Notes: generated by a model from the sequence alone, not told the origin. A stretch of DNA of 64,000 bases from a plasmid (OW849071.1), one strand, 5' to 3'. Positions 32,990 through 56,017 are shown, counted from the stretch's first letter. Made by a program: numbers and translations.

Positions 32990-32999
32990 CCGTGTCTCC

Positions 33000-34256: not shown

Positions 34257-34311
34257 GGTGATGCTACCAACTTGCTGATTTAGTGTATAATGGTGTTTTT
34301 GAGGTGCTCCC

Positions 34312-35009: not shown

Positions 35010-35024
35010 ATTGGAGTCATTACC

Positions 35025-35640
35025 GTAAAACAGCATTAATAAAGTAGAGGATATAGCGTGCAGAATCAGTACGGATATCCCAACCTAAAAGCGTGCGTAA
35101 ATCCGTGATGCCGTTAATTCCCCCGGTGTAACCCTGTTGTCCGATAATAAGAATCGTCAGGATCGCGGAGATAGCCTGGGTGATAATAGCGAAGTACACC
35201 CCGCCAACGCGGCGTTTAAACATTGCGCTGCCGAGAATCCATGCGCAAATAGTGGGCACGATTAAAATAGCCAGAATTGTCAGACTAAAAGAATGGAATG
35301 GCTGCCAGAACGAGGGCAAAGCGGTTAGCTGATTCCAGTCCATAAAATCCGGGATGCCCGGGGTGGTTTGCATTTTTGTTTCCGCTGGCGAGGAAGCTTC
35401 CAGCTTGAGAAACATGGCCATACAATAACCGCCGAGGCCAAAAAAGATGCCCTGCCCCAGGCTCAGAATACCGCTGTAGCCCCAACAAAGTACCAGCCCG
35501 ACGGCAACAAATGCATAAGTCAGGTATTTACCGATCAGGTTTAAACGGAAAAGATCCAGGGTTAGCGGCATGACGATAAAAATAAGGCCTATCACCAGGG
35601 CAATACCCAGTAGCGGATAATTTTGCATGCGTTTCATCAT
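35025..35640 (-). pseudogene. urtC: ABC permease (UrtC/LivM-like), N-terminal part
   Basis: The N-terminal TM helices of the same permease, upstream of the IS1 insertion point. Confidence 0.7.
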
Positions 35641-35646
35641 AAACTC

Positions 35647-36573
35647 CTAGCGGCGGACCCGGTTGGCGAAAAGACCTTGCGGACGCAATAGCAGAATGCC
35701 GACCACGATCAGTAGCGTAATCACCTTCGCCATTGAACCGCTCAGGAAAAACTCCAGCGTGGATTGCGATTGTGAAATGGCAAATGCGGAGGCGAGCGTG
35801 CCGAGCAAACTTTGCGCGCCGCCAAACACCACCACCAGGAAGGTGTCAACGATATACTGCTGGCCAGCCGTTGGACCTGTTGAGCCGATCATGGTAAAGG
35901 CGCTTCCGGCGATCCCGGCGATGCCGCACCCAAGTGCGAAGGTTCGACTATCGACCTGAGCCGTATTAATACCCACCGCGCTGGCCATCTGGCGGTTAAG
36001 TACCACCGCGCGGACTTTTATTCCCCAGGCGGAGAAATAAATCAGCCAGGCCGTAAAAGCGGTAATAACTACGGTCAGCAGCAGAACAAATACCCCATTA
36101 ACAGGAATATCAATATTGTCGGCAAACTGATACGACCCCATTAGCCATGAAGGTAAGTCAACGCCGACTTCGCGGGGACCAAATAGCGAACGATAGCACT
36201 GCTGTAGAATCAGGCTCAGACCCCATGTCGCCAGCAGCGTGTCGAGGGGGCGTTTATACAGATGCCGTATCAGGATTTTCTCAACGAGCGTACCCAGCAA
36301 GGCGGTACACAGGAAAGCAAGGGCAATGGCAACAAAGAAGTAGATGCCGAAGATTGAAGGCAGATAAGCGCTGAAAAACTTACCGGTCAACCATGTGACA
36401 TAAGCACCCAGGATCATGAACTCGCCATGAGCCATATTAATCACGCCCATCTGGCCAAAAATAATAGCGAGTCCAAGCGACATCAGAACAAACACGGCGA
36501 ACAGGCTGAGCCCCGAAAACCCCTGCATGACAAAAATGGAAGCCAAATCGGCGAAGTTATAATCGCTGAACAT
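35647..36573 (-). CDS. urtB: ABC permease (UrtB/LivH-like)
   Basis: Multi-TM branched-chain-type permease. Start taken at MFSDYNFADL (the longer ORF to 36732 would overlap urtA). Confidence 0.75.
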   Translation of the reverse strand: MFSDYNFADLASIFVMQGFSGLSLFAVFVLMSLGLAIIFGQMGVINMAHGEFMILGAYVTWLTGKFFSAYLPSIFGIYFFVAIALAFLCTALLGTLVEKILIRHLYKRPLDTLLATWGLSLILQQCYRSLFGPREVGVDLPSWLMGSYQFADNIDIPVNGVFVLLLTVVITAFTAWLIYFSAWGIKVRAVVLNRQMASAVGINTAQVDSRTFALGCGIAGIAGSAFTMIGSTGPTAGQQYIVDTFLVVVFGGAQSLLGTLASAFAISQSQSTLEFFLSGSMAKVITLLIVVGILLLRPQGLFANRVRR

Positions 36574-36629
36574 GGAAGTATCCTCGGTGAAGTCAAAGCC
36601 CCCCCACGCTATATGGGGGGAAGCGTCGG

Positions 36630-37874
36630 TTAGTCTTTCGGGAATGGGTTCGGTTCGATAAGTTCTGGCGTCTGATAAATCACGTCGTACTGCCCATCCG
36701 CACGAGCGCGACCGATAACCGTTTTGGACCACAGATGATGGTTATCATGGATGCGTACATACCCTTCCGGCGCATCTTTGAACTCAATACCGGGCGAGGC
36801 CTTACGAATTTTGTCCACGTCGAACGAGCCAGCTTTCTCAACCGCCGCTTTCCATAACCATGGGCCAAGATAGGCCGCCTGAGTGACATCGCCGATAACC
36901 ATGTCATTACCCCAGCGCTTTTTAAATGCGGCGACAAAGCTTTTATTTTCCGGATTATCCATACTCTGGAAATACTTCATCGAGGCATAGGCGCCGACGA
37001 TATTTTCGCCGCCAATACCGCGGATCTCATCTTCCGTGACGGAGATGGTCAGCAGCAGCGGTTTCTCCTGCGTCATATCGATCCCCGCCGCCTTCAATTG
37101 CTTATAGAAGGCCACATTCGAACCGCCGACAACAATGGCATAGATAACATCAGGCTTTTTGAGTTTTATTTTGTTAATAACCGAATTGAACTGCGTATTA
37201 CCGAGTGGGTAATAATCTTCGCCAACGACTTTCAGCCCCAGCTTTTCAATATGGTGACGGGCGATTTTGTTTGCAGTACGCGGCCAAATATAATCAGAGC
37301 CAAGCAGGTAGAAGGTTTTTGCATGTTTATTTTTAACTACCCAATCAATGCCGGAGATTATCTGTTGAGTAGCTTCCTGTCCGGTATAAATAACGTTTGG
37401 CGATTGCTCAAGCCCTTCGTAAAAGGTTGGGTAATAGAGCATGCCGTTATATTGCTCAAGTACCGGCAGCATGGCTTTGCGGGAAGCCGAAGTCCAGCCG
37501 CCGAAGATAGCGGCGACCTTATCACTGACCAGTAACTTACGCGCTTTTTCTGCAAAGGTCGGCCAGTCGCTGGCCCCGTCTTCCTGTACATATTCAATTT
37601 TTCTCCCCAGTACCCCTCCGGCAGCGTTAATCTGCTCAATAGCCAGCTTTTCAGCCTGAATCGAGCCGGTTTCACTGATGGCCATCGTGCCTGTGGATGA
37701 ATGCAGTATCCCGACCTTGACGCTATTGTCGGTGACCGCCAGGCCCGTGGTATTAACCACTGACGTCGCCGGGGCGGCGATGGCCGTATTAGCTGCCATC
37801 ATCAGGCCGGCAATCGCCAAAAGTTTCGCTTTGAGGCACGCCTGGTGAAACCGGCCTGGGCTCGGTATTTTCAT
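36630..37874 (-). CDS. urtA: Periplasmic urea/short-chain-amide binding protein (UrtA/FmdD-like, LivJ fold)
   Basis: Signal peptide (AIAGLMMAANTAIAAPA) and a type-I periplasmic binding fold with UrtA-like motifs (KVGILHSSTGTMAISE..., KVAAIFGGWTSASRKAMLPVLEQYNGMLYYPTFYEG). Confidence 0.8.
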   Translation of the reverse strand: MKIPSPGRFHQACLKAKLLAIAGLMMAANTAIAAPATSVVNTTGLAVTDNSVKVGILHSSTGTMAISETGSIQAEKLAIEQINAAGGVLGRKIEYVQEDGASDWPTFAEKARKLLVSDKVAAIFGGWTSASRKAMLPVLEQYNGMLYYPTFYEGLEQSPNVIYTGQEATQQIISGIDWVVKNKHAKTFYLLGSDYIWPRTANKIARHHIEKLGLKVVGEDYYPLGNTQFNSVINKIKLKKPDVIYAIVVGGSNVAFYKQLKAAGIDMTQEKPLLLTISVTEDEIRGIGGENIVGAYASMKYFQSMDNPENKSFVAAFKKRWGNDMVIGDVTQAAYLGPWLWKAAVEKAGSFDVDKIRKASPGIEFKDAPEGYVRIHDNHHLWSKTVIGRARADGQYDVIYQTPELIEPNPFPKD

Positions 37875-38124
37875 ATTGCTATGTGGCTGGGGTAAATCAC
37901 GAATGTTCATGGTAGCCCTCATAATCGTTATGGTTCATCTCAACTGGGGCTATCATGCGAGAGAGTCCATCAATCCAACAATGCGCGAGGTAACGCAGCG
38001 GCTACGTCATTTAACGTATTGGTTAATTCTCATAATCAAGACATGCTCACGTGCGCGATAACAAGAAAATACTAAGACGCGCCTGTGGTTAAGTTCAGCA
38101 TTTTTATCATTTCAGGAGCAGTGA

Positions 38125-41100
38125 ATGACCGTTCAGCAAAAGGCGTTTAAATCGCGCAGACGCTACAACCAGTGGGTGACCAATCAGACTCTCGAGGATT
38201 TTGCGCTCCGCTATACGCCGGTCTCGGCACGACGCTGGAGCGCAAAGCGAGTTGTTATGACAGCGCTCAGCGCAATTACCTTTTTGGCGCTTGAAGCCAT
38301 TGGCGGCGCGCTGACGTTAACCTATGGATTTAATTATGTGGTGGTGGCGGTTATCTTAGTTAGCATTATTATCTTTGCGCTATCAATGCCGATTGCCATT
38401 AATGCCGCAAAAAACGGCCTGGATATTGATTTGCTGACCCGCGGCGCCGGATTTGGCTACCTTGGTTCCACGGTGACCTCGTTAATCTATGCTTCTTTCA
38501 CCTTTATATTTTTCGCCCTGGAAGCCGCTATTATGGCGATGGCGCTTAATATGCTGTTTGGCCTGCCATTGCACTTTGGTTATCTGATTGGTTCCGTTGT
38601 TGTTATTCCCCTCGTCACCTGGGGGTTCACTTTTATTTCCCGTTTTCAGCAGTTCACCCAGTTTTGCTGGCTGGCGCTACAGCTATTACCCTTTATTTTC
38701 ATTTTAATACGTGAACATCATGTGCTGCAAAACTGGATCGACTTCCCTGGTTTTATTACAGCCCGCGATGGTTCTTTCGATTTCCTTCAGCTCGGCGCCG
38801 TCTGTTCCGTACTGCTCTCACTGGTAAGTCAAGTGGGAGAGCAGGTCGATCAGGTTCGTTTTTTACCAAAGCCACAACATCCGGCCCGCTGGAGATGGTA
38901 TGGCGCAGTAATTGCCGCAGGTCCGGGGTGGGTTGTCATCGGCGCCATCAAGATCCTGCTCGGCTCCTTCCTCGCCGTGCTGGCGTTTAATTACGGACTC
39001 GGCGCGGAACTGGCCAGCGAACCCACCCATATGTATCTGGTGGCATTTAGCTATGTCACCCATTCATCATCAACGCTACTGGCATTAACCGGTATTTTTG
39101 TGGTGCTCTCCCAGCTCAAAATTAACGTCACCAATGCATATGCCGGCTCGATCGCATGGTCTAATTTTTTCCTGCGCCTGACCCATCGTCATCCAGGGCG
39201 CGTCGTGTGGCTGTTTTTTAATGTCGGTATTGCTCTGTTATTGATGGAACTTGGCGTTTATCGCGTATTTGAGGATATCCTGGGCATTTATGCGGTGGCG
39301 GCCACATCCTGGCTTGGCAGCGTGGTTGCCGATATCACCTTAAATAAGTGGCTTAAATTACGACCAGCGGAAATAGAGTTTCGCCGGGCCTATCTCTACG
39401 ATATCAATCCTGTCGGCATCGGTTCGATGACGCTCGCCATGCTCTGCGGTCTCTCAGCCTGGATGGGATGGCTTGGTCATCCTCTACAGGTTTTTGCCTC
39501 AATGTTATCGTTGTGTCTGACGTTTATCACCGCCCCCTTCATCGCCTGGCTGACTCGCGGACGTTACTATTTTTCCCGGACGCCGGTGCAGGTCACGGCA
39601 ACGGAATGCTGTGTCTGCGGTAATTATTTTGAAAAACCAGAGATGAGCTATTGTCCTTTTTATCAGGGCAGTATTTGCTCACTATGTTGTTCTCTCGATG
39701 TCCAGTGCAACGATACTTGCAAACCTCATGCGCGCTATACGGAACAGGCTTCAAAGCTTATCGGGATATTTATTAAAGAAAAATCATTACGCAAAATTGA
39801 TCCCAGAGTGTGGAGTTTTATCAGCATTTTGCTGTTATTCAGTTCCGTCATCGGTCTGCTTTTGATGCTGGTTTTCGCTCAGATGCGCGATGAATTCGGC
39901 AGCGAGCAGGACCTTCTCGCCGCGGCGTTATGGAAAGTTTTTTTTATCCTGCTTATCGTAACCGGCGTCACCACCTGGCTATTTGTCCTGACAAATAAAA
40001 GTCGCCAGATTGCGCAAGAGGAATTGCGCCTGCAAAGCGACCGTCTGATGAAAGAAATTATTGCCCATGAAGCGACGGACCGGCAATTGCAGCAGGCAAA
40101 GGAAGATGCCGACGATGCTAATCAGGCCAAAAGCCGCTATCTCACCGGGATTACTCATGAACTCAGAACGCCGCTCAATGCGATGCTGGGTTATGCGCAA
40201 TTACTCGAACGTGCTGATGATATCCCTCCAGCCCGGCAGCGCGGTATCGGTATTATGCGCAGAAGCGGCGAGCATCTGGCTAATCTAATTGAGGGATTAC
40301 TGGATATTTCGAAAATTGAAGCGGGAAAATTAGAAATATATCGTGAAGAAGTGCGCATTGGCGATTTGGTGCAGCAACTGGTCGCCATGTTTGAACAACA
40401 GGCCAGCGATAAAGGACTGACATTTCACTACAACGCCCCACACTGGCTGCCCGAGGCGGTGATGACGGATGAGAAACGCCTCCGGCAAATTCTTATCAAT
40501 CTGCTTTCTAATGCGGTTAAATTCACGGACAGAGGCAGTGTAACCCTCGATTTCCAGTATCGTAGCGAGGTGGCGTTTTTCTCGGTTCACGATACCGGCA
40601 TCGGCATCGCCCCTGAGAACCTGGAACGCATCTTTAAGCCTTTCGAACGCGTATCCGGCGATAGTCGTCGGATCGGGACGGGCCTTGGGCTGACGATTAC
40701 CCGGCTTCTGACTTATATCATGGGTGGCGATCTCCAGGTGGAAAGCATCCGTGGCGAAGGCACAACGTTTAAACTCACCCTGATGCTGCCAAGCTATAGC
40801 GGGGATGCCTACCAACCCGCCGAGCCTGCGGTAATCACCGGATATCCAGGCAAGCGACACACCCTGCTGGTAGTTGACGATGATGAATCCCATCGGCAGC
40901 TGATGATGGATTTACTCACGCCCATAGGCTTCACGCTGCTAACAGCCGAAAATGGTCATGTCGCGCTACATTTAGCCCGGCAAAATCATATCGACCTTCT
41001 TCTTCTGGATGTTGCAATGCCTGAAATGTCGGGGTGGGAACTGCTACGTCAGTTACGTAATAAGGGACAATTAGCGCCGGTAATTATGATTTCTGCGGAA

Positions 41101-41505
41101 GCGGATGAGGGTAAATGCCGCCACTTCACTGGCGAAGGGGAAGTTCGCTACCTGGTTAAACCGCTGCGTTTCCCTTTACTACTGGAGAACATCGGTGAAA
41201 TATTGCATCTCCAGTGGCGCACGGAATGTCAGCCGCCAAAGCAGCCGGAAATACATGAACCACGCTCGCAGCTTACCCGTGTCCAGATTGAGTCGTTAAA
41301 AGAGATGGCCAGATTGGGTTATGTGAGAGGGTTTCGTGAACTGCTGGACAAACATATTTCCGCTAACCAGATCAGCAAAGCCGAGGGCGAAAAATTTGCC
41401 GAGTTGCTGAGGCGCTTTCGATTCAAAGAGATAGTCGAGAGTCTTGAACGCCCGGAGGGAGAGAAAAATGGCAATAGCAAAGCCGACGGTACTTATCGTC
41501 GATGA
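38125..41505 (+). CDS. Hybrid sensor histidine kinase (1126 aa) with an N-terminal ~12-TM permease-like domain (NCS1/purine-cytosine-permease-like), HisKA, HATPase_c and a C-terminal receiver
   Basis: The N-terminal ~520 aa are polytopic membrane sequence resembling nucleobase/NCS1 permeases. Then a coiled-coil. H-box ITHELRTPLNAMLGYAQLL. G-box GTGLGLTITRLL. Receiver LLVVDDDESHRQLMMDLL...LLLDVAMPEMSG. Confidence 0.8.
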   Translation: MTVQQKAFKSRRRYNQWVTNQTLEDFALRYTPVSARRWSAKRVVMTALSAITFLALEAIGGALTLTYGFNYVVVAVILVSIIIFALSMPIAINAAKNGLDIDLLTRGAGFGYLGSTVTSLIYASFTFIFFALEAAIMAMALNMLFGLPLHFGYLIGSVVVIPLVTWGFTFISRFQQFTQFCWLALQLLPFIFILIREHHVLQNWIDFPGFITARDGSFDFLQLGAVCSVLLSLVSQVGEQVDQVRFLPKPQHPARWRWYGAVIAAGPGWVVIGAIKILLGSFLAVLAFNYGLGAELASEPTHMYLVAFSYVTHSSSTLLALTGIFVVLSQLKINVTNAYAGSIAWSNFFLRLTHRHPGRVVWLFFNVGIALLLMELGVYRVFEDILGIYAVAATSWLGSVVADITLNKWLKLRPAEIEFRRAYLYDINPVGIGSMTLAMLCGLSAWMGWLGHPLQVFASMLSLCLTFITAPFIAWLTRGRYYFSRTPVQVTATECCVCGNYFEKPEMSYCPFYQGSICSLCCSLDVQCNDTCKPHARYTEQASKLIGIFIKEKSLRKIDPRVWSFISILLLFSSVIGLLLMLVFAQMRDEFGSEQDLLAAALWKVFFILLIVTGVTTWLFVLTNKSRQIAQEELRLQSDRLMKEIIAHEATDRQLQQAKEDADDANQAKSRYLTGITHELRTPLNAMLGYAQLLERADDIPPARQRGIGIMRRSGEHLANLIEGLLDISKIEAGKLEIYREEVRIGDLVQQLVAMFEQQASDKGLTFHYNAPHWLPEAVMTDEKRLRQILINLLSNAVKFTDRGSVTLDFQYRSEVAFFSVHDTGIGIAPENLERIFKPFERVSGDSRRIGTGLGLTITRLLTYIMGGDLQVESIRGEGTTFKLTLMLPSYSGDAYQPAEPAVITGYPGKRHTLLVVDDDESHRQLMMDLLTPIGFTLLTAENGHVALHLARQNHIDLLLLDVAMPEMSGWELLRQLRNKGQLAPVIMISAEADEGKCRHFTGEGEVRYLVKPLRFPLLLENIGEILHLQWRTECQPPKQPEIHEPRSQLTRVQIESLKEMARLGYVRGFRELLDKHISANQISKAEGEKFAELLRRFRFKEIVESLERPEGEKNGNSKADGTYRR

Positions 41506-42388
41506 TGATATCAACACGGTAAGTATGTTGAATGACACGCTTGATGAAGCCGGTTTTACCGTTCTGGTCGCTCTGGAGGGTAATCAAGCCCTTTCGATAA
41601 CCAGCCAGATAACCCCGGATATCATTCTGCTTGATGCCGTAATGCCGCATCTGGATGGGTTTTCAACCAGTAAGCGCCTGCGGCAAAATCCGGGGCTGCG
41701 GCATACCCCGATTATTTTCATGACAGGCCTGAGTGATACGCAGAATATCGTTGATGCATTTGATGCCGGGGTGGTCGATTACGTAATTAAGCCGATACGC
41801 ACGGAAGAGCTGGTTGTCAGAATGCGTACCCACTTGCGGAACTCAAAATTAACGGTCAGTGCCTATAGCGCGATGGATTCCGTTGGCCAGACCTTATGTG
41901 TTTTTAGCAAAGAGGGGCAACTACGCTGGGCCACGCCCAATGCATGGCAACTGATGAAAAACTTCAGCGATACCGGGTATGAACCCAATAAAAAAATAGT
42001 AAACCGGATCATCGGTTGGCTGAACAATACGGAAGGTTTAAAAATACCCTTAGATCTTTCATCGCAAGGCATCGCTCTGAAATTCTATCTTTCACGCCGG
42101 ACCGCTGAAGGAGAAAGTTTGCTACGTATTGAAGAGATCAAAGGACATGAAGAAGTCGAAGCGGTGAAACGCCTGAAAAACAACCTAGGGCTGACGCAAC
42201 GAGAAGCCGAAGTCCTCCTGTGGATTGCCAGGGGAAAAACAAACCGCGAAATTGGCGATATTTTAAACCTTAGCCCCAGAACCGTGAATAAACACCTTGA
42301 AATTGTATTTCCAAAGCTGAGTGTGGACAATCGCACCGCAGCGGCAGCGTTGGCAATAAATTCGCTATATGCCAGGGAGAAAATGTAG
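41468..42388 (+). CDS. Response regulator with receiver, a middle domain of unknown function and a LuxR-type HTH
   Basis: Receiver VLIVDDDINTVSMLNDTLDEAGF...IILLDAVMPHLDG. C-terminal GLTQREAEVLLWIARGKTNREIGDILNLSPRTVNKHLEIVFPKL. Its start overlaps the kinase gene end. Confidence 0.8.
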   Translation: MAIAKPTVLIVDDDINTVSMLNDTLDEAGFTVLVALEGNQALSITSQITPDIILLDAVMPHLDGFSTSKRLRQNPGLRHTPIIFMTGLSDTQNIVDAFDAGVVDYVIKPIRTEELVVRMRTHLRNSKLTVSAYSAMDSVGQTLCVFSKEGQLRWATPNAWQLMKNFSDTGYEPNKKIVNRIIGWLNNTEGLKIPLDLSSQGIALKFYLSRRTAEGESLLRIEEIKGHEEVEAVKRLKNNLGLTQREAEVLLWIARGKTNREIGDILNLSPRTVNKHLEIVFPKLSVDNRTAAAALAINSLYAREKM

Positions 42389-46990: not shown

Positions 46991-47041
46991 GGCAAACATC
47001 TCCAATTCAATGCGCAGCTGGCGACAAACCATTTCCATCAA

Positions 47042-47352
47042 TTAGGGCTGGCCGCCTTGTGAATTCCAGAAAACGATCTTGCGAATACCTGTGCGCCAGG
47101 CGCTTTTAGCCATTTCAAAACACACTTTCCCCAGAACATCATATGGCAACGAAAGTGTGTCAGGGTAAGCTAGGTGTTCGTCAGATTTACCTACAGGCAA
47201 AGTGGCCAACACCAGCATGGTAAATTGGCAGGCAGTAATTCTGCAGCTCGCTCAATAATGCTGGCATTAATGGCAGCAAACACCCGAACCAGCAGATGAG
47301 GTCCGTGTTGTTCTACGGCGCAAATAGGTAGTACTGCGACGATATTCGCCAT
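47042..47352 (-). pseudogene. Creatininase-family amidohydrolase fragment with an internal frameshift (not on the ORF track)
   Basis: Minus-strand translation: MANIVAVLPICAVEQHGPHLLV..., then in a second frame ...LPVGKSDEHLAYPDTLSLPYDVLGKVCFEMAKSAWRTGIRKIVFWNSQGG. These match the creatininase/formamide-hydrolase family EQHGPHL motif region. Confidence 0.45.
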
Positions 47353-47545
47353 ATCCAGTTTACTGAATTCCCGCGTGGTGAGATCACACCACTAGGGAGA
47401 AGACGGTTTAAGCATGTTTACCTCCGGTTTTGTCTAACAATAAAAGATACGGTACGTTGCATTTAGGGCATTTTAGACCGGCTCTATGTCCTGCTATGTG
47501 CTAACTTTTCCAGTTTAATGGCCTCTCGTCGGGTTGTGTAGCAAC

Positions 47546-47581
47546 AGTGTCGCCACCGGCGGAAATCCGCCGGTTTGAATG
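47546..47581. terminator. Hairpin CCGGCGG-AAAT-CCGCCGG with a T-rich tail, immediately downstream of the ABC ATPase gene
   Basis: Stem read directly from the sequence. The T6 tract is on the plus strand, so function for the minus-strand operon is uncertain. Confidence 0.3.
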
Positions 47582-47590
47582 CTTTTTTGT

Positions 47591-49324
47591 TCAGCAGGCG
47601 ACGAGGTGCCCGTCGCCAAAATCGGTAAAGCGCTGCGGTACTCTCTGATAGCCGATGGGTTTGATCGGTTCTGGTCTTATCGGCATTGCGCTGGTGGCTC
47701 GGGGTTGCCGTCTTTGCTGAACGTCAGGTATAGGAACGGCGCTGAGCAAGTGCTGAGTATAAGGATGCTGCGGATGGTGCAACACTCGATCTCGTGGGCC
47801 GATCTCCACGAGCTGGCCGCCAAACATCACCGCTACCCGGTGGCAGATGCGCTCCACCACCGCCATATCATGGGAAATAAACAGATAGCTGAGCCGATAG
47901 CGCTGACGCAAATCTTCCAGCAGCGTCAGCACCTGCGCCTGTACTGAAACATCCAGCGCGGAAACCGATTCATCGGCGATGATCACTTTCGGGTTCAGCG
48001 CCAGCGCGCGGGCAATGCAAATGCGCTGGCGCTGGCCGCCGGAAAACTGGTGCGGATAACGCCGCATCGCTTCCGCTGGCAGGCCGACCTGCTGCAATAG
48101 CTGCGCCACCCGCTCCGTGCGCTGTACTGCGGGCATCTGCTCATGAATCAGCAGCGGCTCCCCAACCAGGTCGAAAATAGTTTTGCGCGGATTGAGCGCC
48201 GCCCAGGGATCCTGAAACACCATCTGCAAATCGCGGCGTACCGCTCTTAACGCCTCGTCCTTCAGGCCGTGCAGCTCCTGTCCGTTAAGCTGCGCGCTGC
48301 CGCTAAATGGCACCATATTCATCAGAGCTTTTGCCGTCGTCGATTTACCGCAGCCGCTTTCACCGACGATGCCCAACGTCTCGCCGGGGAAAAGATCGAA
48401 GCTGACGCCATCGACGGCATGGACTTCGCGACGCACGCGCAGGCCGTCGCCGCGCACCGGAAAGCGCACGCTGAGGTCGCGGACGCTGAGCAACGGTCGC
48501 GTCGCCTCGACCGGCGCCAGCGCGGGCGCCTGGCCCAGCACCGGTACCGCCTGCAACAGCTGGCGGGTATAAGCCGCCTGCGGCGAGGTAAACAGCGTTT
48601 TTGCCGGAGCCTGCTCCATGATTTTGCCGTGACTCATAACCAGCACATCATCGGCCATTTCTGCCACCACTCCCATATCGTGGGTGATCAACAGCAGGCT
48701 GGTGGAAAACGCCTGCTGCAGTTCGCGCATCAACTCGAGGATCTGCGCCTGAATAGTGACGTCGAGGGCCGTGGTCGGCTCATCGGCAATCAGCACCTGT
48801 GGCTGGCACAGCATTGCCATGGCGATCATCACCCGCTGGCGCATACCGCCGGAAAGCTCGTGCGGATACTGTTGCAGGCGCTTCTCCACATGACTGATTT
48901 TGACCGCGTCCAGCATCGTGCTGACCCGGCTGCGCCGTTCACGGCGGCCCAGCACTTCGTGGCGTTGCAGCGTCTCTTCCAGCTGCTGGCCCACCGTCAT
49001 CAGCGGATTGAGCGAGGTCATCGGTTCCTGAAAAATCATGGCAACCGACTTGCCGCGCAGCAACTGCATTTGCCGCTCCGGCAGGCTGAGCAAATCCTGG
49101 TTATCAAAAATAATCGCGCCGCCTGGAATCTGTGCCTCCTCCGGAAGCAAACCCATGATCGCCAGCGAAGTCAGCGATTTACCGCTGCCCGACTCGCCGG
49201 CAATGCACAGAGTTTTTCCCGGCCAGAGCGCAAAGCTGACGTCATCCACCACCCGCTGTGTACCAAACTGGATCGACAGGCGCTCGACCGAGAGCAGCGG
49301 CGCCGGAAATAGGACTGCTGACAT
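47591..49324 (-). CDS. Fused double ATP-binding-cassette protein of a peptide/glutathione-type ABC importer (GsiA/DppDF-like)
   Basis: Two complete ABC modules (GESGSGKS...LSGGMRQR...ADEPTTALD and GESGCGKST...FSGGQRQR...ADESVSALD). Start taken at [11 protein letters not shown]. Confidence 0.85.
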
Positions 49325-49331
49325 AACGCTC

Positions 49332-50279
49332 CTAATTAAACACGCTGTTGGGAAAATAGAACGACACCACCCAGTTAGGCCGATCGACGATTTCGCTGAT
49401 GCGCAGATCGCCGCACACGGAGCAGAGCATATAGGCCTCTTCCGCCGACATCCCTTGTTCGCGGCACAGCGCATCGATGGTATAGCTTACCGCGTCGCGG
49501 GCGGCGGTCATCAGGTCAGGGCCAATGCCGGTGAAGGCGCTGTAGCCGTGCCGATCCAGATGTTGGGTCACTGGGCCAGGGGTGGCGAAACGCGGCGTTT
49601 TCAGCGGCATATCTTTAACCACTTCCAGCTTCACCACCACGTCCATCGCGCTTTCAATCGCCGTGCCGCAGACTTCACCATCGCCCTGCGCGGCGTGGGT
49701 GTCACCAATAGAAAACAACGCGCCTTCTACTTCCACCGGTAGCCATAATGTGCAGCCAGCGGCCAGATCGCGAATATCCAGATTGCCGCCCACGCGGCGC
49801 GGCGGCACCACCGAATGATGGCCCGCGGCAGCGGGAGCGACGCCGAGGGTACCGGCGAAGGGTTTCAGCGGTACGCGGCCATATCGGCCAAAGGCGCAGG
49901 GGGTTAAGCCCTGGCGGTCATATTGCCACAGCGTCAGCGCCGGATCAGAAAACTGATCGGCCAGCAGGCCGAAGCCCGGGATATTCGCAGTCCAGCCAAA
50001 GCCGCTGGGACGAAAGGATTCCAGCGTCACCTTTAGCGCATCGCCCGGCTGAGCGCCTTCCACATAGACCGGGCCACTGACCGGGTTGAGCTTATCAAAC
50101 GGCAGCGTTGGGATATCCGCTGCGGTAGAACCGGCGTTGAACCAGCCGTTAGCCGCATCCAGGCAGTGAAACTCCAGTTGGCTGCCGGAAGCTACGTGCA
50201 GGACCGGGCTCAGGCTGTTATCCCAGCCGAAATGATGTTGAGCATGATGAATGGTCTTCACCAGACAATTTTGGCACAT
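49332..50279 (-). CDS. Acetamidase/formamidase-family amidohydrolase (FmdA/AmdA family)
   Basis: 315 aa with family-typical segments (GPVYVEGAQPGDALKV...GGNLDIRDLAAGCTLWLPV...GDTHAAQGDGEVCGTAIE). Confidence 0.8.
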   Translation of the reverse strand: MCQNCLVKTIHHAQHHFGWDNSLSPVLHVASGSQLEFHCLDAANGWFNAGSTAADIPTLPFDKLNPVSGPVYVEGAQPGDALKVTLESFRPSGFGWTANIPGFGLLADQFSDPALTLWQYDRQGLTPCAFGRYGRVPLKPFAGTLGVAPAAAGHHSVVPPRRVGGNLDIRDLAAGCTLWLPVEVEGALFSIGDTHAAQGDGEVCGTAIESAMDVVVKLEVVKDMPLKTPRFATPGPVTQHLDRHGYSAFTGIGPDLMTAARDAVSYTIDALCREQGMSAEEAYMLCSVCGDLRISEIVDRPNWVVSFYFPNSVFN

Positions 50280-50323
50280 CCTGACTCTCCTTTAAGCAGC
50301 GGCGCCGTCCCGGCGCCATCAAA

Positions 50324-51928
50324 TTATTTCAGTCCGATATAGTCGTAGTTGACTGGTACATGCACTGGATCGACATACAGCGCGTCCTCGCCCCCCATGC
50401 GTGCGGAATGTACGGTGTAGCGCTTCTCGTTGAATACCGGCACCCAGGGCGCGTCATCCATTGCAGTGATGAAGATTTTGCGCCAGGCTTCAATGCGCGC
50501 GTCCTGCTGGTCGGGTTTCACCATGCTGTCCGCCGCGGCCGCCTGCGCGTCCAGCGCTTTGTTGCAGTAGCGCGCCCAGTTCCAGCCGCCCTCTACCGCC
50601 CCGGCGCAGCCGAGGATCGGGCCATAGAAGTTGGAGGGATCCGGGAAATCGGCGATCCACGCCATGCCGCCGGACCAGACCATCGGCGCTTGGCTGGCGG
50701 AGCCGCCCGCCGCAATCACATTCGCCTGCGCCAGGGATTTGATGCTGGCGTGGATGCCCACTTTGGCCAGATCCTGCTGGATAGACTGAGCGATACGCGG
50801 CTGCGGATCGGTATTCATCACGTACAGTTCGGTAGCAAAACCGTTGGGGAAACCCGCTTCGCTGAGCAGTTGCTTCGCTTTTGCCGGGTCGTAGCTGAAA
50901 CCCTGATATGCCTTGTCATAACCGGGCATGGCGGGTGGCAGTGGCTGGTTGGCCGGCGCCGCGCGTCCATTAATGATGCGCACGATGCGATCTTTGTTGA
51001 CCGCCATGTTCACCGCCTGGCGGACTTTGAGATTATCGAAAGGCGGCAGCGTGGTTTTCATCGTCACGTAGCCGGTCTGCAACTGGTCGCCGGTGACCAT
51101 CAGGCCCTTATAGGCCGGGTTGTTTTTAAACGACAGAAACTGTGCGGGCGGTACGCCGTCGCCGGCAATATCCACTTCGCCTTTTTCCAGCCGCAGCAGA
51201 GCGACCGAGGGATCCTGTCCCATTTCGAACTTTATGTGATCCAGCCGCGGCACGCCGGCTTTAAAGTAGTTCGGGTTTTTGCGGAAGATCAGCTCCTGGC
51301 CCAGCTTCCACTCCTGGAGCTCAAACGCGCCGCTGCCGACCGGATGCTTGCCGAAGTCGGCACCCCATTTCTCCACCTCCTCACGGGGAACCACCGAGGC
51401 AAAGTTCAGCGCCAGCACATGCAGGAAGGTGGCGTTGGGCTCTTTCAGAGTGATTTTTACCGTATGATCGTCGACGACCTCGATACCGCTCAGGGTCGTG
51501 CTTTTACCGCTAGCCTCCTCGTCATAGCCCGCGATGGGACTGAAGAACCCGGCGCCCGGACTTTGGGTTTTCGGGTTGACTGTGCGTTCCAGAGAATATT
51601 TCACGTCCGCCGCCGTGACCTCGCGGCCGTTGTGGAATTTCACCCCTTTGCGTAGCACAAAGGTGTAGACCTTGCCGTCCTCGGAAATGGCGTAGCTCTC
51701 CGCCAGGTCGTTCACCAACTCGGTGGTGCCGGGACGATAGTCCATCAGGCCGTCGAACAGGCTTTTGATCATCGACCAGTTTTGCCAGTCATAGCCAATG
51801 GCCGGATCGAGGGTCGCCACGTCGTTCTGGTAGGTCACCACGATATCGCCGCCGGTCTTCTCGTCAGCCTGCGCGCCATAAGAGAAACAGGCCGCGGCCA
51901 CCGCCATTGTCAATAACGCATTTTTCAT
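50324..51928 (-). CDS. Periplasmic substrate-binding protein, family 5 (DppA/GsiB-like)
   Basis: Signal peptide MKNALLTMAVAAACFSYGAQA and ~510 aa of cluster-C SBP sequence. Confidence 0.85.
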   Translation of the reverse strand: MKNALLTMAVAAACFSYGAQADEKTGGDIVVTYQNDVATLDPAIGYDWQNWSMIKSLFDGLMDYRPGTTELVNDLAESYAISEDGKVYTFVLRKGVKFHNGREVTAADVKYSLERTVNPKTQSPGAGFFSPIAGYDEEASGKSTTLSGIEVVDDHTVKITLKEPNATFLHVLALNFASVVPREEVEKWGADFGKHPVGSGAFELQEWKLGQELIFRKNPNYFKAGVPRLDHIKFEMGQDPSVALLRLEKGEVDIAGDGVPPAQFLSFKNNPAYKGLMVTGDQLQTGYVTMKTTLPPFDNLKVRQAVNMAVNKDRIVRIINGRAAPANQPLPPAMPGYDKAYQGFSYDPAKAKQLLSEAGFPNGFATELYVMNTDPQPRIAQSIQQDLAKVGIHASIKSLAQANVIAAGGSASQAPMVWSGGMAWIADFPDPSNFYGPILGCAGAVEGGWNWARYCNKALDAQAAAADSMVKPDQQDARIEAWRKIFITAMDDAPWVPVFNEKRYTVHSARMGGEDALYVDPVHVPVNYDYIGLK

Positions 51929-51940
51929 CATCTTCCCCTG

Positions 51941-52861
51941 CTACTTTTTGACATCAATGCGCGGATCGACCCACGGCAGCACCAGATCCGCAATAAGGTT
52001 GCCGCCAACAATGGCAACCGCTGACACGGTGGTTACCCCGACAATCACCGGGATATCCACCTGTTGAATCGCCTGCCAGGCCAGCTGACCGATACCCGGC
52101 CAGCCAAAGACCGATTCGACTACCACCAGTCCGCCCATAAAAATGCCGATATCAATGCCTATCATCGGAATTAGCGGCAGCACGGCATTCGGCAGCACGT
52201 GACGCAGCAGTACGCGGGTTCGGCCCAGCCCTTTGGCCCGCGCGGTACGGATAAAATCCTGATGCAGCACCTCAATCATCGACGAGCGCAACATGCGTGA
52301 ATACCAGCCGCTGCCGAGCAGGCCGAGGGTTAGCGCCGGTAGCGCCAGATGGCTGAAGCCGCCATAGCCTCCCATCGGGAACCAGTTGAGTACCACGGCG
52401 AAAAGATAGAGAAAAAGCATCGCGGCGATGAACTGCGGCGCCGAAACACCGATAAAGGAGAGCGCCATCAGAAGCCGGTCCGCCAGCCCGCCGCGTTTTA
52501 ACGCCGCCAGGGTGCCGAGTGCGATCCCCAGTACCAACTCGCAGAGAATACCCGCCGCCATCAGCTGCAGTGACGGCCCGATACGGGCGGAAACCAGTTC
52601 ACTCACTTCGCTGCGCTGAATAAACGAGCGTCCCAGATCGCCGTGCAGCAGCCCCTGCAGATAACGCCAATATTGCTGATAAAACGGAAGATCCAACCCC
52701 AACTGATGGCGGATGTTTTCGACTACTTCCGGCGTGGCACTGCGCCCGGCGATTTGGCGCGCTGGATCGGCGGGCAACATAAACAGCAGCAAATAGCAGA
52801 TCAACGTAACGCCAAGCAGGATCAGCCCGGCATGCAACAGACGTTTTCCCAGAAATAGCAT
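51941..52861 (-). CDS. ABC permease (DppB/GsiC-like)
   Basis: 306 aa, 6 TM, with the EAA-like motif region. Confidence 0.85.
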   Translation of the reverse strand: MLFLGKRLLHAGLILLGVTLICYLLLFMLPADPARQIAGRSATPEVVENIRHQLGLDLPFYQQYWRYLQGLLHGDLGRSFIQRSEVSELVSARIGPSLQLMAAGILCELVLGIALGTLAALKRGGLADRLLMALSFIGVSAPQFIAAMLFLYLFAVVLNWFPMGGYGGFSHLALPALTLGLLGSGWYSRMLRSSMIEVLHQDFIRTARAKGLGRTRVLLRHVLPNAVLPLIPMIGIDIGIFMGGLVVVESVFGWPGIGQLAWQAIQQVDIPVIVGVTTVSAVAIVGGNLIADLVLPWVDPRIDVKK

Positions 52862-53709
52862 TAGTTTCGTCCTTTTAAGCCGGGATCGAGGGCGTCGCGC
52901 AGGGCGTCACCAGCGATATTGAAAGAGAGCGACAGCAGCACAATCGCCGCGCCGGGAAAGAACACCAGCCAGGGAGCCGAAGTAAAATAGCTCTGGCTTT
53001 CAAAGATGATGTTGCCCCAACTCGGCGTTGGCGGCTGTACCCCCACCCCGAGGAACGATAGAGTAGCTTCCAGCAGGACTGTGGTGGAGATGCCTAGTGT
53101 GGCCCAGACCAGCACCGTTGGCGCCAGATGTGGAATTAAATGCACGCCGAGAATACGCAACGTTCCGGCCCCCAGGGTGCGTTCCACGGCGATAAAGTCG
53201 CGGGCGCTAAGCGCGCTAGTTTCGGCGTAGATAACCCTGGCGATCTGCACCCAGTTCACCATGGCGATCACCAGGGACACGATCCAGACACTTGGCTGGA
53301 AAATCGCCGCCAGGGCAATCGCCAGCAGCAGTGCGGGAAACGCCATCATCAGATCGGTAAAGCGCATCAGCAGCCCTCCGATACGCCCCTGCAGATAACC
53401 TGCGCTAAGCCCTACCAGGACGCCGATCAGTACTGCAGTGCCGTTGGCGACAACACCGATGAGTAACGAAGTACGAGCTCCGTAAATTAAACGCGAGAAG
53501 AGATCGCGTCCCAGCAGATCGGTTCCCAGCCAGTAAGTGCTGTTGGGAGAAAGCGGTGCGCCTTCCAGGCTCAGTCCCTCGACAAACTGTTCATCGGGAT
53601 CGAAGGGGGTGAGCCAGGGGGCAAACAGCGCGCTCATCACCACCAGGAGAATAAACAGCAGCGAGAGCAGCAGGGCTGGCCGGCGCAGAAAATATCCGAC
53701 TCTATTCAT
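52861..53709 (-). CDS. ABC permease (DppC/GsiD-like)
   Basis: Start taken at MNRVGYFLRRPALLL. Overlaps the upstream regulator stop (ATGA). Confidence 0.8.
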   Translation of the reverse strand: MNRVGYFLRRPALLLSLLFILLVVMSALFAPWLTPFDPDEQFVEGLSLEGAPLSPNSTYWLGTDLLGRDLFSRLIYGARTSLLIGVVANGTAVLIGVLVGLSAGYLQGRIGGLLMRFTDLMMAFPALLLAIALAAIFQPSVWIVSLVIAMVNWVQIARVIYAETSALSARDFIAVERTLGAGTLRILGVHLIPHLAPTVLVWATLGISTTVLLEATLSFLGVGVQPPTPSWGNIIFESQSYFTSAPWLVFFPGAAIVLLSLSFNIAGDALRDALDPGLKGRN

Positions 53710-54299
53710 TGTGCTCCCCGCTTGCCGGACGACATTCGTAGCAGCCACTTCTGCGCCACCTGTGCCACCGACTGGTTCGTACACATTGATTCCGAGCGCA
53801 GGCGAACCCATGCCTGTTGTTCATCAATACTTTCCGCTTGCATCTGGGCCGCCAGAGCTTGGGTAATCTGCGGCATTGCTGCCAGACGCTGGCGCAGTAG
53901 CATCTGTTGCTGTTGAATGTCATGCAACTGCTGACGCAGCCCCACTGCCATCATCAGGGTGGTATAGATGGCTCGCTGTGTAATAGGCTTGGTAAGGAGC
54001 GCTGTTGCCCCTAACTCCAGCGCGCGCTGTACCTGGTAAAGTCCCTCATGTGAGGTCAGCGCGATCACCGGTATTCCGGCCAGATTGATCTGGCTCAGGG
54101 TTAGCGGGCTGGCGAATGCCTCCAGTTCCACCAGTACTGCACAGGGGGTGAGAGGAGGTAAAGCCTCATCTCCGGTCAGGTGATGCCAGCGGATACCCAT
54201 CCGCGTCAGGTTTTTTTCCAGCGCTTCGCGACTCCTTGCTTCACAGTCTACCAGCAGGAGCGGCTGAGCATCTAAATCCGGGGACAGCAGCGTTTTCAT
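53706..54299 (-). CDS. Receiver-ANTAR antitermination regulator (AmiR-like)
   Basis: N-terminal receiver-like fold (PLLLVDCEARSREALEKNLTRMGIRW...) and a C-terminal helical ANTAR-like segment (RQRLAAMPQITQALAAQMQAESIDEQQAWVRLRSESM...QVAQKWL). Confidence 0.65.
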   Translation of the reverse strand: MKTLLSPDLDAQPLLLVDCEARSREALEKNLTRMGIRWHHLTGDEALPPLTPCAVLVELEAFASPLTLSQINLAGIPVIALTSHEGLYQVQRALELGATALLTKPITQRAIYTTLMMAVGLRQQLHDIQQQQMLLRQRLAAMPQITQALAAQMQAESIDEQQAWVRLRSESMCTNQSVAQVAQKWLLRMSSGKRGAQ

Positions 54300-55423
54300 T
54301 TAACAATCCTCAGAGCAGGTCTGGCTGCAACCGTTCGGCTTTCACGTAGCTCGGTCGCGGAGAGATAGGGATCGGGCATAACCGGCAGCGGTTCGCGATG
54401 CAGTATCTGAAAGCAAGTTTGTTGCAACTCAGCGATGTAGCAGGGCAAACAGGCGTGGTTGTTTCGAGCCATTACTGAGCGAGCGCCCGGAGAATCAACG
54501 TCGTGCTGACGATGCAGTGCCGCCAGCACCGCACCCGGCTCGCTGTTTCCGGCCTCGCGCAGGCTATTGGCAAACAACCTTACTGCCCGCCAGCCGCCGA
54601 TATAGTAGTGGGAGATGCGCTGTGCGCCATGTTGCAGGTGCTGCCGCGCGCAAAAATCGAGATCGACGCTCTCAAAAAACGGTCCGCAGGAAAGCAAACG
54701 TACCGCCCTTAGTGGCGCGACTTCGGCGACTTCGGCTTCGGTAAAATTACAGCTGAGCACCGCTAACGTCCGCCGATCGCGAAGACAGGCCTCGTCCAGT
54801 GCGCGCAGAAACGCATAAGAGGTTTCGCCTACCAGGTTATTGAGTACAAAATCTACCTCTGTGCTGAGAATCGCCTCAATCAACTCGGTCACGTTGCTGT
54901 TTCTCAGGTGCAGATATTTTTCGCCCACCACCGTACCGCCGGAACCTTCCACTACCTCACGGGCGATACGATTGCTTTCCCAGCCCCAGACGTAGTTAGA
55001 GCCGATCAGCCAGGAGCGATTTCCGAACATATCCAGCGCCAGCCGCAGGAGTGGCAGCAGAGTCTGGTTCGGACAACCGCCCAGATATACGACCTGCTCG
55101 CAGCTCTCGAACCCCTCGTAAGGACAGCCATACCACAGCAGCAGGTTATGCTGCTCCAGGTCCGGGATAATCTCCTTCCGACTGGCAGAGGTAATGGTTC
55201 CGAAGATATGGCGGATGCCGTGAGCGATAAAGGTGCTCACCGCTTCACTGTAGGCTGCGAGTTCACCCGCAGGGTTGATATGTCGGGCCCGCAGCTGAAA
55301 AGGATAAGCAGGATCGGCATTGATTTCCTCTAAGGCATGGCGCGCACCAAGCAGTGTGCTGTTCGCCAGGTGGCTGTAGGTACCTTCTGTGGAAAGCAAA
55401 ATTCCAATATCAATAGTTTGCAC
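54296..55423 (-). CDS. AmiC-like amide-sensing periplasmic-binding-fold protein (negative regulator partner of the AmiR-like protein)
   Basis: Type-I PBP fold without a signal peptide, collinear with Pseudomonas AmiC (IGILLSTEGTYSHLANSTLLGARHALEEINA...). Apparent GTG start. Confidence 0.65.
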   Translation of the reverse strand: MQTIDIGILLSTEGTYSHLANSTLLGARHALEEINADPAYPFQLRARHINPAGELAAYSEAVSTFIAHGIRHIFGTITSASRKEIIPDLEQHNLLLWYGCPYEGFESCEQVVYLGGCPNQTLLPLLRLALDMFGNRSWLIGSNYVWGWESNRIAREVVEGSGGTVVGEKYLHLRNSNVTELIEAILSTEVDFVLNNLVGETSYAFLRALDEACLRDRRTLAVLSCNFTEAEVAEVAPLRAVRLLSCGPFFESVDLDFCARQHLQHGAQRISHYYIGGWRAVRLFANSLREAGNSEPGAVLAALHRQHDVDSPGARSVMARNNHACLPCYIAELQQTCFQILHREPLPVMPDPYLSATELRESRTVAARPALRIVK

Positions 55424-55440
55424 GTATGTTTGCTCTCTGC

Positions 55441-55484
55441 ATTAATAAAAAAGCCTGATTGTCCTTATTAGGACAATCAGGCTT
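55441..55484 (-). terminator. Intrinsic terminator in the operon leader, 18 nt upstream of the AmiC-like start
   Basis: 14-bp perfect stem AAGCCTGATTGTCC / GGACAATCAGGCTT with a TTATTA loop. It is followed on the transcribed (minus) strand by T6 (plus-strand A6 at 55445-55450). Confidence 0.65.
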
Positions 55485-56017
55485 CATTACCTGTCGATAT
55501 TTAATGGATTCAAGGCTTAAGGGTTGCCCCTGCTTGCATATACCCGACATGAAAAATTCATGCCATTTTTAAAGCACAGTTAAATCAATGGATTATTTAT
55601 TTTTGGAGACACTTTTGCACCAATGGGATGCGGCTTGCTCAGTTATGGTGCAATTTTCTGATGCAGTCTGGTCTCTTCAACATGAGGTGGAGTAATGCAC
55701 ACCTGTTTTAGTTCCACGCACTTTTTGAGAGTTCCGGTTTTTCAGCCATCAGCAGGTGATCCTCCGGCGTCAGGTTATTCAGGGATTCATGGGGACGCTC
55801 TGGATGGAAGATCCTCGTGACGAAGCCGAATTTGCCCCCGGCCACGTGCTTTTTTTCGAGCGTAATGTTGTCCATGCATTACCAACCCTTCTTGAAGAAC
55901 CCGTAATATTTCTGTCATTGGCCAGCCCTCGTCGTGCTCCTGAAGATATTACCTTTGTTGACCCGAAAGATGGCACTGCCAGAACCTTTATGGCCAGAAA
56001 TAATGAGTCAGCATAAA

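Follow-up and report, generated by a model that had tools for sequence, protein, structure and literature searches.

A plasmid-borne operon with an AmiC/AmiR-like regulator pair, a Dpp-type importer and an FmdA_AmdA-family amidase as a probable scavenging pathway for L-amino acid amides

We analyzed a stretch of 64,000 nucleotides from plasmid OW849071.1 (hereafter the window), which carries a compact operon on its minus strand. Between 47591 and 55423, open reading frames (ORFs) together with matches to Pfam and NCBIfam profiles delimit seven tightly packed genes, between which stop and start codons overlap (Table 1). They encode, in the direction of transcription, an AmiC-like ligand sensor, an AmiR-like ANTAR protein, two permeases of an ATP-binding cassette (ABC) transporter, a periplasmic solute-binding protein, an amidase and a fused double ATPase. 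This order had been given by an earlier note on the same DNA, and all seven genes were present in the ORF, Pfam and NCBIfam data. The note had also been correct in assigning the transporter to the Dpp/Gsi type rather than the Urt type, the amidase to a family other than that of the Pseudomonas enzyme (FmdA_AmdA and not nitrilase-type AmiE), and the sensor to the homologues of AmiC. It had named the absence of a functional ANTAR domain as a finding that would speak against the proposed control; a profile search placed this domain above the Pfam threshold. The functional unit reaches further upstream than the end coordinate of the note, with promoter and leader extending to 55565 and putative activator sites to 55652. 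For the ATPase we adopted the RefSeq start, which corresponds to Met51 (window 49324); the longer ORF of 627 aa overruns this start and overlaps the amidase gene.

Table 1. Features of the operon, its upstream region and the neighbouring nitrogen module in the window (positions counted from the first nucleotide of the window).
Feature	Position	Strand	Remarks
AmiC-like cytoplasmic ligand sensor	54296-55423	-	375 aa, GTG start; Peripla_BP_5, E 9e-77 (Pfam)
AmiR-like ANTAR antiterminator	53706-54299	-	197 aa; start overlaps the sensor stop by 4 nt; ANTAR 32.8 bits
ABC permease, OppC/DppC type	52861-53709	-	282 aa from the RefSeq start; Pfam and NCBIfam
ABC permease, DppB/GsiC type	51941-52861	-	306 aa; Pfam and NCBIfam
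Periplasmic family-5 solute-binding protein	50324-51931	-	signal peptide; SBP_bac_5, E 3e-103 (Pfam)
Short FmdA_AmdA-family amidase	49332-50279	-	315 aa; PF03069, E 1e-56
Fused double ABC ATPase	47591-49324	-	577 aa; GsiA/YejF-like architecture, oligo_HPY tails; Pfam and NCBIfam
Intrinsic terminator of the leader	55447-55485	-	16-bp stem 55485-55450, 4-nt loop, U-run 55452-55447; 26 nt before the GTG start
P2 hexaloop hairpin, predicted ANTAR site	55478-55493	-	CAGGU-[AAUGAA]-GCCUG, G4 at 55485; loop and 3' strand are shared with the beginning of the terminator 5' arm
P1 branched element	55511-55536	-	outer stem CAAG/CUUG, inner hairpin AGGG-GCAA-CCCU, single-stranded UAAGC junction (UAAG at 55519-55516)
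Sigma-54-like promoter TGGCATGAATTTTTCAT	55549-55565	-	GG at 55564-55563, -12 C at 55551; -12 element TTTCA, not TTGCA
Two NtrC-like activator sites, TGCACCATAACTGAGCA and CGCATCCCATTGGTGCA (putative)	55652-55636 and 55632-55616	-	each 10/12 of TGCACC-N5-GGTGCA
IHF-like site AATCAATGGATTA (consensus WATCAANNNNTTR), tentative	55583-55595	+	between activator sites and promoter; read by eye
G+C-rich hairpin, possible end of the operon	47555-47574	-	8 bp, without U-run; 17 nt past the ATPase stop; tentative
AmiF-type formamidase (nitrilase superfamily)	31257-32264	-	601.8 bits against a cutoff of 406
urtEDCBA	32300-37922	-	part of the second nitrogen module
Hybrid histidine kinase	38125-41505		second nitrogen module
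Response regulator	41444-42388		second nitrogen module

The binding protein points to the class of substrate that the transporter may carry. Smith et al. assembled 610 SBP_bac_5 proteins from operons of exactly this type, which contain genes for a signal-peptide-less Peripla_BP_5 protein, an ANTAR protein, an ABC transporter and an FmdA_AmdA amidase (10.1101/2024.02.22.581678). The Mesorhizobium protein MeAmi_SBP (PDB 8UPI, solved with L-serinamide) binds Gly-amide, Ala-amide and Tyr-amide with dissociation constants of 50, 1.5 and 0.19 µM, respectively. No binding of amino acids, about 100 di- and tripeptides, glutathione or acetamide was found, and the α-amino group of the ligand, which forms a salt bridge with Asp413, is needed (10.1101/2024.02.22.581678). 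We found that the binding protein of the window is 70% identical to 8UPI (356 of 510 positions, E 2.5e-253). All ten residues named for the homologue are identical, namely the ligand residues Y32, W34, M408, W410, I411, D413 and W435, as well as D45, D49 and Y207 of the Ca2+ site. We predict that the protein of the window likewise binds L-amino acid amides. The substrate had been guessed in the earlier note to be a small peptide-like amide, which comes close to the published answer of L-amino acid amides for the homologous protein.

The amidase matches only PF03069, without any match to the CN-hydrolase domain of the nitrilase superfamily, and with 315 aa as compared to about 407 aa it reaches 121.5 bits against a cutoff of 500 for the formamidase FmdA equivalog (NCBIfam NF045496). 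Its relatives in the PDB are "acetamidases" of ~300 aa that have no assigned substrate, and within the operon family the enzyme is 66-83% identical. A 314-aa amidase sharing 70% identity with that of the window is encoded in Daeguia caeni (Brucellaceae) inside an equivalent seven-gene operon. The L-amidase of Ochrobactrum anthropi NCIMB 40321, for which PMC7431475 cites Sonke et al. (2005), is reportedly a metal-dependent member of the FmdA_AmdA family of ~314 aa that hydrolyses L-α-amino acid amides and not simple aliphatic amides; the likeness to it is one of family. We predict the same activity, that of an L-amino acid amidase, for the enzyme of the window.

Among the regulators, the sensor lacks a signal peptide, the protein beginning at the first β-strand (VQTIDIGILLS...), and aligns to AmiC of P. 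aeruginosa (PDB 1PEA/1QO0) with 31% identity and an E-value of 2.7e-38. We mapped the AmiC pocket residues listed in PMC13531289 by alignment to 1PEA and inspected them in 21 family members. Residues S85, R88, Y104, P107, Y108, E109, Y150 and V206 of AmiC are kept in the sensor and are invariant or nearly so in the family; the amide-contact residues S85, Y104, Y150 and P107 correspond to S79, Y98, Y144 and P101 of the sensor. Other pocket positions are changed, i.e. Y83 to I (or T), M84 to T, T106 to C (or S), Y152 to W, P153 to G and T233 to N. The AmiC variants Y83H, Y83T and Y83C respond to (S)-2-aminobutyramide, an α-amino acid amide (PMC13531289), and Ile or Thr at the aligned position fits an inducer of this kind. 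More speculatively, the near-invariant Glu200, which lies two residues past the equivalent of V206, is a candidate partner of the α-amino group.

The second regulator carries an ANTAR domain (PF03861) that exceeds the gathering cutoff of 27.3 bits, next to a weak receiver match and an AmiR_N match below the cutoff (22.1 against 27 bits). Its best match in the PDB is AmiR (1QO0_D, E 5.8e-7, ~25% identity). Motif inspection of the family alignment showed that the N-terminal half is a degenerate receiver, in which the phospho-Asp position is taken by a glutamate (Glu58) in most family members and by an aspartate in Vibrio. No kinase gene is located within the operon. We infer that the antiterminator acts independently of phosphorylation, and its sequestration by the sensor, by analogy with AmiC and AmiR, is the most economical model. 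For the Mesorhizobium sensor-regulator pair, Smith et al. reported only an AlphaFold2 model (10.1101/2024.02.22.581678). In EutV, the loop base G4 of the RNA stacks on a tyrosine of the ANTAR domain (PMC8934654); the protein of the window has a tryptophan at the aligned position.

In order to place the operon among its relatives, we retrieved 75 loci, one genome per species, with an alignment of AmiC-like relatives and searched them by tblastn with the seven proteins of the window. The order of the seven genes is identical in 65 of the 69 closest loci. The 65 loci originate from Enterobacterales, Pseudomonas/Stutzerimonas, Paraburkholderia, Halomonadaceae, Marinobacter, Celerinatantimonas and Vibrio/Grimontia, and the loci of Rhizobium, Mesorhizobium and Daeguia have the same gene order. 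This conservation is far beyond chance. The transport proteins and the amidase are 66-99% identical across related loci, while the regulators diverge more (39-99% for the sensor and 25-99% for the antiterminator). Within Klebsiella plasmids, a block of 8.5 kb is 100% identical; 646 PLSDB records contain it with at least 80% coverage, most of these carriers being conjugative IncF-type plasmids, and it is present in 5 of 5426 complete E. coli genomes. The G+C content of the block is 57-63% as compared to 44-48% in its flanks, which comprise an integrase fragment, insertion sequence (IS) elements and a decayed creatininase-family gene.

Ahead of the sensor gene, a stretch of 100-120 nt that separates the promoter from the start codon is conserved in the gamma- and betaproteobacterial branch, and the leader of the window folds with a z-score of -4.65. 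We aligned the leaders as 54 distinct sequences. In the terminator, 95% of the cells are paired, and 10 of its 13 pairs are changed on both sides. Every gamma- and betaproteobacterial locus has this terminator after the conserved promoter and ahead of the first gene, whatever lies upstream. A leader terminator, the absence of which from homologous loci would have counted against the earlier note, is found both in the window and in its relatives. Directly overlapping its 5' arm is the hexaloop hairpin P2, whose stem is paired in 97% of the cells over the 54 sequences and whose loop retains A1 in 49, G4 in 53, A5 in 54 and A6 in 52 of them. In the published definition of ANTAR targets, this position is held by a stem of at least 3 bp that closes a hexaloop carrying A1 and G4, and the 3' side of the stem also belongs to the terminator 5' arm (Ramesh et al. 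2012, PMC3369931), and a single hexaloop has been redefined as the minimal ANTAR site (PMC8934654). The P2 hairpin of the window agrees with the published definition in both versions (PMC3369931; PMC8934654) and is predicted to be the antiterminator and the binding site of the ANTAR protein.

A second element, P1, precedes P2 and is branched. Across the family its outer stem reads NAAG/CUUN', with a closing pair (21-57) that covaries between CG (43), AU (4), GC (2) and UA (2). The inner hairpin is variable and its pairs covary, and the junction bases U, A, A and G are found in 54, 52, 54 and 53 of the 54 sequences, respectively. Leaders of Pseudomonas contain an additional GCGC hairpin with a loop of 4-5 nt, none of which is present in Klebsiella. 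For the nascent RNA that ends with P2, P1 and P2 make up the minimum free energy (MFE) fold. In contrast, the full leader has an MFE of -40.2 kcal/mol with the terminator versus -28.1 kcal/mol with P2 enforced. This preference of ~12 kcal/mol for the terminator implies that termination is the default and that a stabilised P2 prevents it.

A covariance model of the leader, R1, has a single match in the 64-kb window (55446-55552, 78.5 bits, E 2.6e-18). In loci outside its training set, Vibrio included, the only match lies just upstream of the sensor gene. A search of the leader against Rfam at permissive E-values returned nothing meaningful, and Smith et al. did not succeed in finding canonical dual hexaloops in their operons (10.1101/2024.02.22.581678). 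R1 found no match in alphaproteobacterial operons, those of the MeAmi type included, and our description of the leader is therefore limited to the gamma- and betaproteobacterial branch. In Rhizobium (L077:9330-9480) and Mesorhizobium (L078:9330-9490), which have TTGACA-type promoters and whose leaders follow an equivalent logic with other sequences, a hairpin GGGC-[AGUUUC or AGUAUG]-GCCC overlaps the 5' arm of a terminator; its loop has A1 and lacks G4, so that the canonical motif is not found there.

Further observations were made in more distant loci. Weak R1 matches (23-25 bits) are located ~2.5 kb upstream of the AmiC-like gene in three Rhodobacterales (L071:7481-7577, L072:7481-7577 and L076:7230-7334), where they may mark the true start of Urt/formamidase operons. 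By eye, a locus of the classical type in Paracoccus sp. (L074:1204-1314) has an equivalent of the P1 inner hairpin with a canonical AACGGC hexaloop and an outer stem GACG/CGUC, an indication that a canonical P1 gave rise to the branched form in the family of the window. In Paraburkholderia sp. J10-1 (L045:9868-14109), an equivalent leader (62.9 bits) and a sensor-antiterminator pair stand before another FmdA_AmdA amidase of 298 aa, and the transporter is an APC-family amino acid permease instead of a Dpp-type ABC system. The regulatory cassette is modular in this locus, and the arrangement is a hint, by analogy, at an amino-acid-like substrate.

Upstream of P1, the promoter sequence has the spacing of sigma-54 promoters, with GG at -24, C at -12 and T at -13. 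The pattern TGGCAYN5TTKCW matches once in the 64-kb window, at this very site, with 0.53 matches expected. Among related loci, TGGCAYN-N4-TT(T/C)C(A/T) is present in 58 of 69 at the equivalent position, 12-20 nt before P1. The -12 element in loci L002-L070 is TTTCA or TTCCA, i.e. with T or C at -13, and only one Paraburkholderia locus (L049) has the canonical TTGCT. On the minus strand, a scan for sigma-70 promoters returned nothing close to the leader. The 5' end of the transcript is predicted near 55540-55538. Over the 180 nt ahead of the promoters of related loci, NtrC-like sites (at least 10/12 matching positions) occur at 2.5 per kb as compared to 0.064 per kb across the loci, an enrichment of ~40-fold found mainly in Enterobacterales. 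The layout of two sites at about -88 and -68 from the GG is shared by three further loci (L006, L009 and L054). Taken together, the promoter and the NtrC-like sites suggest that nitrogen control is added to control by the inducer.

These results lead us to propose that the operon is a plasmid-borne member of the MeAmi type and constitutes a nitrogen-scavenging pathway for L-amino acid amides under a sensor/antiterminator switch, a reading that we consider probable. The periplasmic family-5 protein would capture an L-amino acid amide, the Dpp-type transporter with its two permeases and fused ATPase would import it, and the cytoplasmic amidase would split it into the amino acid and ammonia. Expression would require two signals. 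Through the sigma-54-type promoter and the NtrC-like sites, transcription would depend on nitrogen limitation, and the transcribed leader would by default fold into the strong terminator before the first gene. As long as no amide is bound, the AmiC-like sensor would hold the ANTAR protein inactive; binding of the imported amide would free the antiterminator, which would then recognize the nascent leader at the A1/G4 hexaloop of P2, probably aided by the branched P1. As P2 takes up bases of the terminator 5' arm, we propose that the terminator could then not form and that the polymerase would read into the operon. Of this model, our own data show which genes are present and that the operon is conserved, how the leader is structured and that it is conserved too, that P2 shares bases with the terminator, and that the ligand residues are retained. 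The ligand class, the sequestration between AmiC and AmiR and the recognition of hexaloops by ANTAR domains are carried over from the literature on homologues. Dependence on NtrC and sigma-54, the inducer of the sensor, the substrate of the amidase and the role of P1 are our own deductions and are to be read as probable assignments. A more far-reaching combination of ideas is put forward tentatively, as possible rather than probable: the gamma- and betaproteobacterial leader, not described before, would depart from the dual-hexaloop design, with the conserved UAAG junction as second contact, and together with an atypical NtrC-controlled sigma-54 promoter it would form a two-key switch, turned by nitrogen limitation and a cytoplasmic L-amino acid amide, that has been spread by conjugative plasmids in clinical Klebsiella.

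The function of the operon could be understood differently. As an analogue of P. aeruginosa amiEBCRS, it might serve acetamide or short aliphatic amides, with the ABC transporter importing acetamide or formamide, the amidase hydrolysing it and acetamide acting as inducer. This is how a 2026 paper interpreted the genes, naming them amiC, amiR and amiE (PMC13209695), and it agrees with the family name FmdA_AmdA, which stands for "acetamidase/formamidase", and with the AmiC amide-contact residues retained in the sensor. The same study found acetamidase activity in a lysate of Klebsiella sp. KOS9, which carries the operon on pKOS9-W1, after growth on acetamide (PMC13209695), and this result counts against L-amino acid amides as the substrates. 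However, the assay had no knockout control, and the plasmid region has a separate AmiF-type formamidase module, a possible source of the amidase activity measured in lysates of strains with the plasmid. In addition, acetamide is not bound by the 70%-identical homologue 8UPI, whose ligand residues are the same and which requires the α-amino group held by Asp413, the amidase falls far short of the formamidase cutoff and is not an AmiE of the nitrilase type, the sensor pocket differs from AmiC at Y83, T106, Y152 and T233, and small neutral amides are usually served by Urt/Fmd-type systems, one of which is located 6 kb away. We therefore regard acetamide as an unlikely substrate. That the transporter is an ordinary peptide or glutathione importer of the Gsi/Dpp kind, next to which the amidase and the regulators stand by chance, is barely credible. 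Several plasmid records carry a Prokka-type annotation as GsiA-D, and the best-scoring NCBIfam models of the transporter genes are Gsi, Dpp and Nik; yet all these equivalog matches are far below the curated cutoffs (GsiB 251 against 594, DppA 236 against 1005, GsiA 647 against 1077), the close homologue 8UPI bound neither di- or tripeptides nor glutathione, and an arrangement by chance is at odds with a gene order that 65 species share and in which stop codons overlap start codons.

A further alternative concerns the leader, whose hairpin might merely terminate or insulate upstream transcription while the ANTAR protein has another point of action, such as translation in the manner of actinobacterial targets, or in any case does not act on this leader. 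The non-canonical P1, the failure of Smith et al. to find the dual hexaloop in their operons and the lack of a matching Rfam family are compatible with this view. We consider it very improbable, given that the terminator keeps its place between promoter and first gene irrespective of what lies upstream, that the A1/G4 hexaloop overlaps the terminator 5' arm exactly as in known ANTAR targets, that the whole leader is found only ahead of the sensor gene and that the only gene upstream of the leader in the window is a truncated integrase fragment. Several observations nevertheless weigh against the proposed L-amino acid amide pathway and its two-signal control. A canonical P1, i.e. an A1/G4 hexaloop hairpin upstream of P2, was absent from all leaders when searched by eye and by regular expression, and covariation offers little for P2, because its stem is nearly invariant. 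Alphaproteobacterial members, including the characterised Mesorhizobium type, have other leaders and sigma-70-like promoters, so that the details of regulation cannot be carried over to every member of the family. Of the active-site residues of receivers, several are retained in the receiver-like domain of the antiterminator, where the acceptor position is a Glu. As to the promoter, the single match in the window, taken alone, lacks significance, and the argument is the conserved position. Sigma-54 promoters almost always have a G where this -12 element has a T.

At its downstream side, the G+C-rich hairpin behind the ATPase gene possibly represents the end of the operon, although the terminator scan did not report it. 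An eighth operon gene was considered and rejected, as each genus examined has other neighbours 3' of the ATPase gene, most of them on the opposite strand. In the window, the decayed creatininase-family gene follows right after the ATPase gene on the minus strand (~47040-47420); it has an in-frame stop and is represented by two small RefSeq fragments, and its position next to the operon is not conserved in other genomes. A second amide/urea nitrogen module lies ~6 kb off at 31257-42388 and comprises the formamidase, urt, kinase and response regulator genes listed in Table 1, with copies of IS5 and IS110 between it and the ANTAR operon. A comparison with the near-identical plasmid pKqs_12A476_1 assigned the first 31000 nucleotides of the window to pco copper, ars arsenic and clpK/hsp20 heat resistance genes and several IS, a content typical of large Klebsiella IncFIB/IncFII plasmids. 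In Salinicola peritrichatus (L062:12600-18300), the two permease genes of the seven-gene operon are separated by the insertion of a second, distantly related Dpp-like ABC operon.

The operon is a common accessory metabolic module on large Klebsiella pneumoniae plasmids, where it is found beside copper, arsenic and heat-resistance genes. Together with the adjacent urea/formamide module, it appears to provide these plasmids with a nitrogen-scavenging capacity. Databases label it as a glutathione, peptide or acetamide system, and the link to L-amino acid amides corrects this annotation. The leader is a concrete candidate target for a family of ANTAR proteins whose target was reported as not found, and it indicates that the canonical second hexaloop is dispensable in nature. 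With respect to applications, the sensor, a naturally occurring variant of AmiC in which a small residue replaces Tyr83, could serve as a ready-made biosensor for α-amino amides, and the amidase is a candidate L-selective biocatalyst.

The closest known system is the MeAmi family (Mesorhizobium sp. AP09, PDB 8UPI), which agrees with the operon of the window in the seven genes, their order, the 70%-identical binding protein and its ligand and Ca2+ residues. It differs in that the copy of the window resides on an enterobacterial conjugative plasmid, with a sensor ~38% and an antiterminator less than 30% identical to the rhizobial proteins. The leaders differ as well, the window combining a sigma-54-like promoter with an A1/G4 hexaloop and Rhizobium/Mesorhizobium combining sigma-70-like promoters with AGUUUC/AGUAUG loops. 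The plasmid copy has been described as an 8-kb "acetamidase operon amiC-amiR-ABC-amiE" on pKOS9-W1 of Klebsiella sp. KOS9, with more than 99% identity to many Enterobacteriaceae plasmids (PMC13209695, 2026). Going by the description in that paper, this operon is identical to that of the window. Its authors assume acetamide and AmiE, whereas the enzyme is an FmdA_AmdA protein and the binding protein points to L-amino acid amides.

The P. aeruginosa system amiEBCRS (1PEA, 1QO0) shares with the window a cytoplasmic amide sensor of the periplasmic-binding-protein fold, an ANTAR antiterminator whose receiver-like domain is, in the window, probably not phosphorylated, and a terminator in the leader, which induction overrides in Pseudomonas and would override in the window. 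In contrast to Pseudomonas, where they follow the enzyme, the regulators come first in the operon of the window, which moreover encodes an enzyme of another superfamily and an ABC importer instead of the AmiS channel. The regulators themselves have diverged to 31% (sensor) and ~25% (antiterminator) identity, with a remodelled pocket (Y83I/T, T106C/S, Y152W, T233N) and an AmiR_N match below threshold. The nasF operon of Klebsiella reportedly unites an NtrC/sigma-54 promoter with antitermination in the leader by the ANTAR protein NasR, according to work by Lin and Stewart (1996) and Chai and Stewart (1998-99) that PMC3369931 cites. The two-key logic of sigma-54 nitrogen control and leader antitermination through A1/G4 hexaloops would be the same in the window, where the sigma-54/NtrC part is a reading of the DNA sequence; NasR, however, is a NIT-domain sensor fused to ANTAR, whereas the window encodes a separate AmiC-like sensor.

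EutV/EutW of Enterococcus faecalis resembles the operon of the window in the short stem with an A1/G4 hexaloop that overlaps the base of the terminator (PMC3369931; PMC8934654). In the window, P1 is branched with a UAAG junction and is not a hexaloop, and control probably occurs by sequestration as opposed to phosphorylation. Clusters of an FmdA formamidase and a Urt/FmdDEF-type transporter under AmiC/AmiR-like control are represented among our more distant loci (L071-L076), in which AmiC-like genes are located beside Urt-type transporters and a formamidase-like enzyme, the classical arrangement. Here, too, the genes for an FmdA_AmdA enzyme and an ABC importer are preceded by one for an AmiC-like sensor, sometimes with an ANTAR protein, but the enzyme is a formamidase-type protein of ~400 aa with 31-35% identity, and the transporter belongs to the Urt type of the branched-chain family. 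Overall, the operon family and its plasmid copy were already known from 2024 and 2026, respectively, and our analysis adds a model of the leader RNA with a canonical P2 and a non-canonical P1, a probable control by sigma-54 and NtrC, and a correction of the "acetamide" and "glutathione" annotations.

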